From IMG/VR virus record IMGVR_UViG_3300020477_001447, positions 36,744-100,743 of that record: a stretch of 64,000 nt of DNA; one strand, written 5' to 3'. This DNA is from a virus. A program made the position numbers and the translations under genes. Shown piece after piece: positions 24,966-64,000 of the stretch (position 1 is the first letter of the stretch; the number at the start of each line of letters is the position of its first letter). A model generated the notes under the pieces. That model saw only the letters and a list, made by a program, of their open reading frames with translations, was not told the DNA's origin and made no database searches.

Positions 24966-26762
24966 ATGGCTAAAAAAATTAAATCAATTGATTATACAAG
25001 CAGAGACTTTGAGTCTATTAGGCAAGACTTAATCAATTATACAAAAAAATACTATCCTGACTCTTTTAAGGACTTTAATGAGGCTGGGTTTGGAGCATTG
25101 ATGCTCGATAGTGTTGCTTATGTTGGCGATATGCTTTCTTTCTACTTGGATTATCAAGCAAATGAAAGCTTTCTAGAAACATCGATGGAATATGCGAACA
25201 TTGTCAAACACGGAAGACAGATGGGGTACAAATACCCAGGAGTACCTTCTTCTTCTGGGTTAGTTTCTTTGTATATTACAGTACCGGCCAACGCAGACGG
25301 CACCGGCCCAGACATGTCATATGTCCCAACTCTTCTTAAAGGAACCCAGTTTACGTCTTTAAATGGTAGCATTTATACATTAATGGAAGATGTTTATTTT
25401 GGAAATGCGACCAACGAAGTGGTTGTATCAACTGTGGACTCCTCCACTGGCGTACCGACAAATTTTGCTATTAAAACATCAGGCTTAGCCATTTCTGGTC
25501 GTTTAATATCGCAAGAAGAGACAGTGGGTGATTTTCAAAAATTCTTGCGCATAGGATTGAACAACCCAAATGCTACTGAAATTGTTTCATGTGTTGACTC
25601 CGAAGGTCATGAATATTTTGAAGTGGATCATCTTTCTCAAAATGTTATTTACAAAGCAATACGAAACAACAATCAACATAGAAAATCCACACCATCAATC
25701 CTCAAAGCAGTCCCTGTACCTAGAAGGTTTGTTTTAGAGAGATCCCCAGGTGTAGCATTCCTTCAGTTTGGCTACGGTAGTGATAATGAATTAGTAAATT
25801 CCAGTGTTGTTGATCCAGCAAACATTGTAATGAACATTCATGGTCGCGACTATTCTGTAGATGAAGCTTTTGACCCAACAAAACTTACTGCTACTGATAA
25901 GTTTGGAATAGTTCCATCGAACACAACGCTTAATATAGTTTTTAGAGCTAACGCATCAACAGATGTTAATGCTAGTGTTGGCACAATTAACGGAGTTTCT
26001 TTGCCGCTATTTAAATTTACAAACCAGGGCGCCCTAAATGCAGGTTTAAGAACTACAGTTCGTGGTTCTTTGGAGGTTTTGAATGAGGAACCTTTTGTTG
26101 GGGACGTTGCTGTGCCTAGTGGTACAGAACTTAAACAAAGAATGTATAGTTTTTATGCAACTCAGAATCGCGCAGTCACTGCTGAAGACTACAAGAGCAT
26201 GGTTTATGCAATGCCCGGACGTTTCGGGGCTGTAAAGAAATGCTCTGTTTCTCGGGATTTTGATTCTTTTAAGAGAAACTTAAACTTGTATGTTGTCTCT
26301 GTTGATTCGAATAATAAATTAAGTCTAGCCAACACAACAATAAAAAATAATATTAAAACTTGGCTAAATCGGTATAAAATGATAAATGACACTGTTGACA
26401 TATTAGATGCTAAGATTGTTAATTTTGGTATCAAGTTTATTGTTGTCGCAGACTATGAAGAAAACAAGTATGATGTTTTGAATCGGGCAACTGCAGCTTT
26501 GAAAGAACACTTTTTAACAAATAGCTTTGATATTGGAGAGCCTATTTATATTACAGACATTTATAAGGCCCTACAAAAAGTGAAAGGTGTCGTAGATGTG
26601 GTTGACGTTATAGTTGTGCAGAAGCGTGGTGGTGTATATTCAAACACAACCTATGACTTCGAAGCAGCAATATCCAACGACGGAAGAAAGATTTTAGCAG
26701 AAGAGGATCTTGTGTTTGAATTGAAATATAGAAATACAGACATTGTAGGAAGCGTTTCATAA
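24966..26762 (+). CDS. gp6: Baseplate wedge subunit, T4 gp6-like
   Basis: DYTSRDFESIRQDL, AYVGDMLSFYLDYQANESFL, LQFG.G, TQNRAVTAEDY. Confidence 0.92.
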   Translation: MAKKIKSIDYTSRDFESIRQDLINYTKKYYPDSFKDFNEAGFGALMLDSVAYVGDMLSFYLDYQANESFLETSMEYANIVKHGRQMGYKYPGVPSSSGLVSLYITVPANADGTGPDMSYVPTLLKGTQFTSLNGSIYTLMEDVYFGNATNEVVVSTVDSSTGVPTNFAIKTSGLAISGRLISQEETVGDFQKFLRIGLNNPNATEIVSCVDSEGHEYFEVDHLSQNVIYKAIRNNNQHRKSTPSILKAVPVPRRFVLERSPGVAFLQFGYGSDNELVNSSVVDPANIVMNIHGRDYSVDEAFDPTKLTATDKFGIVPSNTTLNIVFRANASTDVNASVGTINGVSLPLFKFTNQGALNAGLRTTVRGSLEVLNEEPFVGDVAVPSGTELKQRMYSFYATQNRAVTAEDYKSMVYAMPGRFGAVKKCSVSRDFDSFKRNLNLYVVSVDSNNKLSLANTTIKNNIKTWLNRYKMINDTVDILDAKIVNFGIKFIVVADYEENKYDVLNRATAALKEHFLTNSFDIGEPIYITDIYKALQKVKGVVDVVDVIVVQKRGGVYSNTTYDFEAAISNDGRKILAEEDLVFELKYRNTDIVGSVS

Positions 26763-28408
26763 TGGCCATTAAAAGATATAAAGCAAGTAAAGATACAACC
26801 ATATCAAACTCATATGATTTTTCCCTCTTGCCTAGAAATAGAGCAACTGGTTCGAACATGGGTGCTGCAGACACTCTAGAAATCTTTTCGATATATGGCC
26901 AAGTATCTTCATCGGGCAAGCAAGAGGCAGTTGGCCTGTCGTCAGAACTTTCCAGAGTTTTGATTGGCTTCCCAGTTAGTGGATCAACAGAAACAATTGG
27001 GTCTGACCGAAATGCTGGAAAAATTCCTGTCTCTGGGAACGTAAAGTTCTTTTTGCGAATGTTTAATGCAAAGCATGCAGCCACAACTCCAAGAAACATT
27101 AAATTAGTTGTTGCAGCTGTATCAGCCAGTGCCGACTGGGAAGAGGGAACTGGCATAGATTTAGATGAGTATAAAGACAAAACTCATGACGAAGAGGGCG
27201 CAAACTGGATTAGATACGCATCTAATAAATCTTGGGACCGCCCCGGCGGAACATTTTATATTGATAGTACCTCTTCATACACCACAACTTTAGAAAAGGG
27301 CGACGAGGATATTGAACTTGATGTTACATCTATAGTTGAATATTGGCTCAAACCAGAGGGCAATGCCCAGCGCCGTGAAAATCGCGGCTTCGCAGTTTTT
27401 CTTACTTCAAGCCAGGAAGCATATCACTCTGCCTCAAAGGGTTATAACCTAAGTTTATTTCAGGGTCAGGGCGCAACAGGCTCTGTAATCCACAACCCTG
27501 CCGGTGCAAAAAGATCGTATTATACAAAGAAGTTTTTTGCACGGACATCTGAATTCTTTTTCAAACAGCCCGTTCTTGAAGCTCGATGGGATAGCACAGT
27601 TAAGGACAGGAGAGGTGATTGCCACTATAGTAGCTCTATGGTATCAGCTCAAGACAATTTAAACACAATCTATCTTTATAACTATGTTCGAGGTCGTCTG
27701 CAAAACATTCCATCGATAGGGACCGGTGAGATTTTTGTTACTTTGTATTCTGGATCTGCAGACAATAATTCACCTTCAATTAACACAATTAAATTACCAC
27801 AAGGTGGAGGTGTTTCCGGACCTGCGCACACATTAATCACGGGTGGGTATGTATCTACTGGTATATATTCTGCTTCATTTGCTATCACAGCCGCATCTAA
27901 CCCGCTAAGTAGGGTTTTTGATGTTTGGCATAGCGAGATTCCCATCGGAGAGGCACAGCCCGCTACGGAATTCTGGACAGGAAGCATAAACGTAAAAGCC
28001 TTTAAGTCTTACACGAATGCTCCGAGTTTTGAATATGTAACTGCAATACCAAATCTTAAAGCATCCTATTCAAAAACAGAGGTAGCTAGATTTAGACTCT
28101 ATGTCAGAGATAAAGACTGGAATCCAAACATATACACAAAGGCGACCAATACTCCCGATAATACTATTATTGAAAGTGGATCGTTTAAGGTGGTAAGATT
28201 ACAGGATAACCTCAATGTCATTAGTTATGGCACGGGATCAAACAGGCACACTCATACTTCCTTTGATGTGTCTGGAAATTATTTTGATTTGGACATGGAT
28301 CTCCTACAAGAAGACTACACGTATGGAATAAAACTCGCCTACTACAATGATCACATTGGTGGGTGGACTGAACAACCGGAAATTTTTAAATTTAGAGTTG
28401 AAGACTAA
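26762..28408 (+). CDS. Putative baseplate/virion structural protein (beta-rich)
   Basis: Translationally coupled between gp6 and the giant wedge protein; S/T/G-rich. Confidence 0.65.
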   Translation: MAIKRYKASKDTTISNSYDFSLLPRNRATGSNMGAADTLEIFSIYGQVSSSGKQEAVGLSSELSRVLIGFPVSGSTETIGSDRNAGKIPVSGNVKFFLRMFNAKHAATTPRNIKLVVAAVSASADWEEGTGIDLDEYKDKTHDEEGANWIRYASNKSWDRPGGTFYIDSTSSYTTTLEKGDEDIELDVTSIVEYWLKPEGNAQRRENRGFAVFLTSSQEAYHSASKGYNLSLFQGQGATGSVIHNPAGAKRSYYTKKFFARTSEFFFKQPVLEARWDSTVKDRRGDCHYSSSMVSAQDNLNTIYLYNYVRGRLQNIPSIGTGEIFVTLYSGSADNNSPSINTIKLPQGGGVSGPAHTLITGGYVSTGIYSASFAITAASNPLSRVFDVWHSEIPIGEAQPATEFWTGSINVKAFKSYTNAPSFEYVTAIPNLKASYSKTEVARFRLYVRDKDWNPNIYTKATNTPDNTIIESGSFKVVRLQDNLNVISYGTGSNRHTHTSFDVSGNYFDLDMDLLQEDYTYGIKLAYYNDHIGGWTEQPEIFKFRVED

Positions 28409-63692: not shown

Positions 63693-63702
63693 GAGAGATA
63701 AA

Positions 63703-64000
63703 ATGGGTTTTAATTCAGGCGGTGGCGGCGGCGGCGGATTTGGTTCCGGCGGCGGCGATGTAGACGGACCACAAACAATTAATGGAAACGCTACAATCAA
63801 TGGAACAATAACTTATTCAAGTTCTGCTGGAGGTAAAATCTATGCTCATGACACTGGCTCCTTTGTTGGTTTGCAAGATATGGGCGACGATGGCTATCTT
63901 TACGTGTTGTCTTCTGATCATTACGGTATTGATATCTCTGGCTCTAATGCTGACGGTGTTTCTATCTATGGTGGCTTTGGCGCTGAAGCCGGTGTTAGTA
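63703..64000 (+). CDS. Gly-rich putative fibre/virion protein, 3'-truncated by the window edge
   Basis: AGGAG SD, ATG 63703, frame open to the end: MGFNSGGGGGGGFGSGGGDVDGPQTINGNATINGTITYSSSAGG... Confidence 0.7.
   Translation, partial: MGFNSGGGGGGGFGSGGGDVDGPQTINGNATINGTITYSSSAGGKIYAHDTGSFVGLQDMGDDGYLYVLSSDHYGIDISGSNADGVSIYGGFGAEAGVS

Follow-up and report, generated by a model that had tools for sequence, protein, structure and literature searches.

The stretch analysed here, hereafter the window, comprises 64,000 nucleotides (nt) of IMG/VR virus record IMGVR_UViG_3300020477_001447 (positions 36,744 to 100,743) and forms the final 64 kb of a 100.7-kb contig; it holds late and structural genes of a tailed phage, all on one strand. 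Two of its elements are considered: an island of sugar-related genes near its start, situated in the late-gene block 11-25 kb upstream of the gp6 gene, and a set of virion proteins rich in the tripeptide [ST][GAS]S (the motif), which a preliminary description of the window put forward as a candidate acceptor code for phage-encoded glycosylation. The genes concerned are listed below (GT, glycosyltransferase; ORF, open reading frame; aa, amino acids).

Just upstream of the window, before GTa: J1, conserved upstream flank gene of the island
2..1165, + strand: GTa, first conserved GT4 of the island (Pfam Glycos_transf_1); the gene starts 106 nt before the window and codes for 423 aa in full
1105..3246, + strand: GTb, the other conserved GT4 (Pfam), which here forms residues 1-430 of a fusion with a variable C-terminal domain, GTc (residues ~430-713)
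3248..13827, + strand: variable cargo of the putative glycosylation island (Pfam); homologues occur in G001, the closest relative, and otherwise only here and there
14586..15287, + strand: J2, conserved downstream flank gene, which together with J1 defines the slot
24966..26762, + strand: T4 gp6-like baseplate wedge protein (PHROG baseplate wedge), classed as motif-free (1 motif against 1.6 expected; 0-2 motifs in all relatives)
26762..28408, + strand: protein X, 548 aa, a predicted beta-sandwich array; 14 motifs, 17 canonical sites across orthologues
28408..38358, + strand: giant baseplate protein of 3316 aa that includes a Laminin_G_3 domain; 40 motifs, 30 canonical sites
39326..46582, + strand: two large motif-free proteins, 1055 and 1356 aa
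47593..48663, + strand: 356-aa protein, 9 motifs, paralogue of the 48687 gene
48687..50054, + strand: 455-aa protein, 12 motifs, paralogue of the 47593 gene
63255..63692, + strand: 145-aa head-module protein, 5 motifs
63703..63999, + strand: partial Gly-rich ORF, 3 motifs

Expected motif numbers were obtained by translating all ORFs and shuffling each protein 1000 times with its composition preserved. Six virion proteins lie far beyond what their composition predicts (pooled, 83 motifs against 20.2 expected, z = 13): protein X has 14 against 2.9, the giant protein 40 against 11.3, the 47593 and 48687 proteins 9 against 2.2 and 12 against 2.0, the 63255 protein 5 against 0.8 and the partial ORF 3 against 0.9. 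All remaining proteins of the window together have 20 against 29.8. The manual counts of the preliminary description (about 14, 39, 9, 12, 5 and 3) were accurate to within a single motif, and its remark that few motifs occur in the portal, terminase, gp6 and 1795-, 1055- and 1356-aa proteins was equally sound (0, 1, 1, 3, 2 and 0, respectively).

When all tripeptides of the six proteins are ranked without bias, TGS stands at the top (27 against 2.9 expected), and [ST]GS as a class reaches 42 against 6.5, while near-miss tripeptides are not enriched in these proteins ([ST]GT 5 against 5.3, AGS 3 against 2.8, NGS and GGS 0 each). Position 1 is strictly Ser or Thr and position 3 strictly Ser. The hydrophobic residue said to precede the motif frequently is present in 51 of the 83 cases (6.2 expected, z = 17.8), and Leu, Val, Ile or Tyr stands at position -1 in 47. 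The orientation and substitution controls rule out a low-complexity or patch artefact. The nine-base strings coding for the motif are almost all distinct, which indicates that selection acts at the protein level; together with a Ser codon usage like that of the background, this rules out a motif at the DNA level. Spacing is irregular (2-465 residues), within folded domains and not tandem, and the motif is no structural repeat; the earlier statement that the motifs are dispersed singly holds, although the 47593 and 48687 proteins are paralogues. The 47593 protein has a C-terminal domain in common with many proteins of the phages immuto and Mel-JY01 described below. Nor is the motif typical of giant baseplate proteins at large: the giant structural proteins beside gp6 are not enriched in cyanophage P-TIM40 (18 against 16.2 expected) or in Pectobacterium phage CBB (9 against 6.9).

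Judged by gp6, Microcystis phage Mel-JY01 and Flavobacterium phage immuto are the nearest cultured phages (~30% identity). Their proteins downstream of gp6 are equally motif-enriched, and both phages carry orthologues of GTa and GTb plus further GTs. The densest carrier seen is the 1053-aa 'tail spike' of immuto (L002:35293-38454), with 60 motifs against 20.5 expected.

Using gp6 as both a phylogenetic marker and an internal negative control for motif counts, we compared 54 IMG/VR contigs found through gp6 or X at 40-79% identity. On 53 of them gp6 and the proteins upstream have 0-2 motifs, X has 7-18 (2-5 expected) and the giant protein 35-55 (10-17 expected). The positions are conserved as well. 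X has 17 sites at which the motif is found in at least 10 of 29 orthologues, and the giant protein has 30 motif sites common to phages that are only 32-39% identical overall. Residues at conserved sites swap freely within the motif class; at one site of X all six variants occur (TSS, TAS, TGS, SSS, SGS and SAS), and the residue before it is Leu in 21 of 25 sequences.

The sugar cluster fills a fixed slot between J1 and J2, which here lies within window positions 2-15287 and the 900 nt before them (genome 35852-52030). Among the 13 genomes with both flank genes on the contig, the slot begins with GTa and then GTb (40-80% identity), followed by unrelated cargo, and slot sizes are 3.6, 8.6, 10.3, 11.1, 13.0, 13.2, 14.7 (this phage), 14.8, 14.9, 17.9, 19.2 and 22.4 kb. 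Slot length varies between 0.9 and 22.4 kb across relatives, with an invariant head of two GTs and a body in which hardly any gene recurs from one phage to another, an arrangement that resembles an O-antigen-like hypervariable locus. A relative of J2 is present on at least 588 IMG/VR contigs. Orthologues of GTa, 51-80% identical, directly follow J1 in every relative with a filled slot and have the EX7E motif intact; the N-terminal part of GTb is conserved at 40-80% in all filled slots, likewise with EX7E intact in all. The best solved relative of both in profile searches is chlorovirus B736L (3OY2; for GTa E = 7e-15 over the full length), a likeness at the level of the GT4 family; a single-sequence search of the PDB with GTb gave no match. 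The C-terminal domain of GTb is ~280 aa long here; among relatives, some lack it, some encode it as an ORF of its own, and some have an unrelated GT2 domain in its place (G008 type). Being present in only some relatives, and in two unrelated types, it was ruled out as a universal motif-linked gene.

By Pfam, window 2-13827 codes for three GT4 and three GT2 glycosyltransferases and one weak GT29-like match. The cargo itself (3248..13827) comprises three GT2, one GT4, two methyltransferases, the GT29-like protein, two CMP-sugar cytidylyltransferases (PF02348, found twice), a 2-hydroxyacid dehydrogenase, a NeuB-type synthase (PF03102), an epimerase and a UDP-sugar dehydrogenase. These cargo genes hardly recur in other phages, and none is universal. 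The NeuB, cytidylyltransferase and GT29-like branch in particular is confined to this phage and a small number of relatives and absent from most motif-rich ones, so that a sialic-acid-like coat, which the preliminary description had entertained, is not the basis of the motif: these genes are hypervariable cargo. In the small cargos (2-4 genes) one or more further GTs are always present, in most cases accompanied by a sugar-nucleotide dehydratase or epimerase or a methyltransferase. The cargo of one relative includes an HNH endonuclease gene (L247:8428-9042), a possible agent of cargo exchange.

Co-variation of the motif with glycosyltransferase repertoire across relatives, proposed as a check beforehand, is seen, and we found no relative that is enriched yet lacks glycosyltransferases. 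All 17 phages with cargo in the slot are motif-rich (2.3-5.9x enrichment), while the canonical sites are lost in seven of the eight phages without cargo, namely the one whose slot is empty and six of the seven whose slot holds just the GT pair. In these seven motif-poor phages X keeps 0-1 of the 17 canonical sites and the giant proteins 1-5 of the 30, in full-length alignments at 34-67% identity. Slot size and motif ratio are correlated (Spearman 0.73, p = 3e-4, 20 phages, not corrected for phylogeny), and the relation has the form of a step: phages with any cargo are motif-rich, those with the pair alone or nothing motif-poor. Where the slot measures 6.5-9.2 kb, enrichment in X is 2.3-5.9x.

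The empty slot occurs in G012, which shows gene-for-gene synteny with the window genome over 48 kb and has only 884 bp between J1 and J2; its 48.6-kb contig gave no GT1 or GT2 family match. Its orthologues of X, the giant protein and the 47593 and 48687 proteins are full-length and 36-52% identical, with 0, 5, 0 and 1 motifs against 14, 40, 9 and 12 in the window. When the window's 75 motifs are followed at the aligned position, G012 keeps 3 of them and the equally diverged, cargo-bearing G008 keeps 35. Residues found in G012 at canonical sites are KDS, KTN, ISP, SNP, KAL, SEE and KAY, with the surrounding blocks conserved. Ser or Thr is kept at 64% of motif columns in G008 (background 48%) and at 34% in G012 (background 41%). 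Among 80+77 loci searched through J2, no empty slot was found besides that of G012.

Starting from the flank gene of G012, we found six phages with minimal slots of 3.2-3.3 kb that hold only GTa and GTb (G032-G037). X keeps 0-1 of 17 canonical sites in these phages, and the giant protein keeps 1 of 30 in G032 and 5 of 30 in G036; the latter genome, 80% complete, contains no GT1 or GT2 gene beyond GTa and GTb. Loss of the GT pair followed by decay of the motif was rejected as the whole story, since these phages combine an intact pair with motif-poor targets. GTa and GTb alone do not sustain the motif, and their intactness in motif-poor phages means that the pair has a role independent of the canonical sites. 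The GTa of motif-poor G032 (g32 1238-2536) itself contains 4 motifs against 0.7 expected.

Two further phages were considered in this context. LR756508 was tried as a clean negative control and rejected: it is without GTb, but it has a GTa-like gene, other GT4 matches and weak enrichment. The thermophilic Rhodothermus phage RM378 has, at L107:9165-11893, a homologue of GTa (29% identity, E = 1e-33) with an unannotated 425-aa gene after it; moderate enrichment is seen in a few of the phage's probable structural proteins (8 against 1.8 and 6 against 1.1), which is suggestive, not decisive.

The gp6 tree places the motif-poor phages inside the motif-rich clade, implying that the motif-poor state is derived, i.e. 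a loss. They form group A (G012 and G032-G034, 100% support) and group B (G035-G037, 99%), and as the sister of group B is a group with cargo and a rich motif complement (92% support), the tree implies two losses. Between G012 (L048-L050) and G032 (L275-L277), backbone genes are 92-99% identical at the amino-acid level and baseplate genes 31-74%, a contrast indicating that divergence or recombination is much quicker in the baseplate module than in the backbone.

An AlphaFold (AF2) model of X, built on a 30-sequence alignment, is an array of beta-sandwich domains (predicted local distance difference test, pLDDT, 71; predicted template-modelling score, pTM, 0.69), and a fold search with this model returned only generic Ig/FN3/macroglobulin-like beta-sandwich arrays and no specific phage protein. 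With exposure approximated from secondary structure, six of the 14 motifs fall in low-confidence loops of the model, six in loops or strand ends, and two inside strands.

We think it probable that the hydrophobic-[ST]-[GAS]-S pattern is an O-glycosylation sequon, an acceptor or recognition site for the enzymes of the island. From the specificity of the motif, its positional conservation and its co-variation with island content, all of them observed directly, we infer a glycan on Ser/Thr, an acceptor residue and an enzyme that reads it. Selected virion proteins, namely peripheral baseplate proteins made of beta-sandwich domains and a few head-module proteins, would be O-glycosylated in the cytoplasm before assembly by the phage's own island enzymes. 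The hypervariable GTs, sugar-nucleotide enzymes and methyltransferases would set the glycan structure; a sialic-acid-like (ulosonic acid) branch is part of the cargo in this phage. The relatives suggest that maintenance of the motif depends on glycan-building cargo beside the conserved GT pair. The earlier proposal that the adjacent cluster decorates these sites has thereby gained partial support through co-variation, although the GT pair alone is insufficient and the glycan itself is deduced. The pair is the obvious candidate reader of the motif, yet it persists without canonical sites; it may have extra targets, unextended priming may bring too little benefit, or the reader may be encoded elsewhere. 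We would put at about even the chances of the wider proposal, that a very large clade of aquatic myoviruses (at least 588 contigs with the flank gene) practises sequon-coded, self-encoded cytoplasmic O-glycosylation at dozens of sites on baseplate and head proteins, in which the hypervariable island sets the glycan and lineages that drop the cargo shed the sites.

Several observations weigh against a sequon read by island enzymes. GTa and GTb of motif-poor phages keep their EX7E motifs and normal conservation, and no other gene is universal among the motif-rich phages. In G010, of whose genome 27% is visible, a 3.6-kb slot with only the pair goes with an X that has 15 motifs against 4.3 expected. 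An approximately unbiased (AU) test does not reject a single origin of the motif-poor state (p = 0.12), so that, tree and test taken together, the association has one or two events behind it, in addition to the G012 deletion. The two motifs of X inside predicted strands also count here, as does the lack of motif avoidance in non-target proteins (z = -1.3 in the phage's own genome; none in G008), from which it follows that the tripeptide alone cannot define targeting.

The most serious alternative, though one we regard as unlikely, is that the motif is read by another factor, either a post-translational modification such as phosphorylation or an assembly or quality-control protein of phage or host, and that its loss in the minimal-slot clades stems from a host switch or some other change peculiar to the lineage, which fell together by chance with the loss of sugar cargo. 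Such a reader would accommodate a history of only one or two coincident events, a GT pair that persists intact without the motif, and the retention of the motif without cargo in G010; most of the contigs are moreover fragments, on which other gene differences could go unseen. It fits less well with the G012 comparison, where the island is the only visible difference in gene content over 48 kb of synteny, and with the intermediate slots, which accompany intermediate or full motif density. The island, furthermore, codes only for sugar-related functions, and a Ser/Thr-based motif suits the chemistry of O-linked glycosylation.

Very improbable, in our view, is that the motif is an unmodified strand-end or turn signature of beta-sandwich domains. 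Motifs do often follow a hydrophobic strand and lie at strand ends, and their positions are conserved in alignments. However, the full-length orthologues of the motif-poor phages lack nearly all canonical sites with the flanking blocks conserved, which argues that the motif is not structural and largely refutes this explanation; a turn would also tolerate Asn, Asp or Gly at position 1 and Thr at position 3, neither of which is enriched, and unrelated giant baseplate proteins are without the motif. Least probable of all is a neutral quirk of composition or lineage, an inherited local richness in Ser and Gly without function. In its favour, control phages show a mild general S/T/G tripeptide excess over shuffles (z 2-3); against it stand a 4-7x enrichment that is oriented and position-specific, sites that persist between the distant giant proteins described above, and a Ser/Thr constraint at motif columns that is conditional, being above background in G008 and no better than it in motif-poor G012. 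Even jointly, the structural and neutral explanations take up only a small part of the probability.

Glycosylation of phage virions is already known from a small number of examples; the dispersed acceptor motif would be the new part, at present a purely computational one, and our search of the searchable literature found no description of such a motif in phage structural proteins. According to the passage of PMC12619734 that cites Freeman et al. 2023 (PMC10527164), mycobacteriophage virions are O-glycosylated at the C-termini of capsid and tail-tube subunits; there too, as that passage has it, phage-encoded GTs lie beside structural genes and are proposed to decorate virion proteins in the cytoplasm. 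Our case differs in its candidate sites, which are internal and scattered as tripeptides by the dozen over baseplate and head-module proteins, in its definable sequon and hypervariable island, and in being known from sequence alone. For large aquatic 'moraphages', four core glycosyltransferase groups have been noted, with no targets proposed (PMC12619734).

The island has points in common with other kinds of system. Among solved structures, chlorovirus B736L (PDB 3OY2) is the most similar to GTa and GTb. Chloroviruses, as proposed here for the phage, glycosylate their capsid with their own cytoplasmic enzymes and no lipid carrier, but their major capsid protein bears N-linked glycans at atypical sequons, whereas the candidate sites here are Ser/Thr; we know of no established substrate for B736L itself. 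GtfA/GtfB of Gram-positive bacteria is likewise an adjacent GT4-type pair followed by variable further GTs: it primes Ser in S-x-S-like contexts of serine-rich repeat adhesins with O-GlcNAc in the cytoplasm, and the variable GTs extend the glycan. Its substrates are long tandem Ser-rich repeats, unlike the discrete sites in folded domains here, and we found no specific homology of GTa or GTb to it, profile searches of the PDB returning B736L, BshA-like and other generic GT4 proteins. The general O-glycosylation system of Bacteroidota also uses a three-residue sequon, and some relatives of our phage infect Bacteroidota (Flavobacterium phage immuto); that system, however, is periplasmic, with en bloc transfer from a lipid carrier, and its sequon is D-(S/T)-(A/I/L/V/M/T), whereas the motif here has no Asp at -1 (L/V/I/Y instead) and strictly Ser at +2.

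Flagellins are O-glycosylated with nonulosonic acids by Maf/FlmG systems (PMC7591256). These resemble our proposal in the cytoplasmic O-glycosylation of Ser/Thr on a secreted structural polymer, and NeuB-type and CMP-sugar synthetase genes are also found in the cargo of this phage. Ulosonic-acid genes are, however, absent from most motif-rich relatives, and no island protein scanned gave a Pfam match to the Maf family of transferases.

If such a simple sequon exists, glycosylated virion proteins would become predictable from metagenome sequence, and the presence of glycosyltransferase islands as core genes in many large aquatic phages would be explained. Phage particles would then have glycan 'serotypes' analogous to bacterial O-antigens, and the glycan diversity of particles would be a variable trait with a bearing on adsorption, stability, stickiness to marine polymers and evasion of host recognition. 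Cytoplasmic glyco-engineering could also draw on the sequon and its enzymes as tools. The cultured relatives immuto and Mel-JY01 make the claim directly testable.

As for the remaining genes, the enriched proteins are mostly without family assignment: X and the 47593, 48687, 63255 and 63703 proteins match no PHROG or Pfam family, and the giant protein matches only Laminin_G_3. The 63255 and 63703 genes lie in the head module, after the maturation protease and, going by a complete relative, before the major capsid protein. The G008 gene that corresponds to 63703 by position, with no sequence match shown, codes for 256 aa with 16 motifs against 3.3 expected. The 1055- and 1356-aa proteins stand in the middle of the enriched block, are weakly conserved within the clade (24-33% identity), belong to no PHROG family and lack homologues in both immuto and Mel-JY01; in all likelihood they are receptor-binding proteins open to exchange, and not targets.

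About 10 kb upstream of the window start (genome 25654-26817) lies a gene for a 387-aa protein with 8 motifs against 2 expected, three of them within near-identical 52-aa tandem repeats (…AEFAALSASFNYDMRAIETETLAFAE…); on these counts it is a candidate further target outside the window. Finally, window 15558-18131 contains two neighbouring paralogues with a common 200-aa N-terminal domain (38% identity), the second of which has an endolysin-like C-terminus (PHROG 90).

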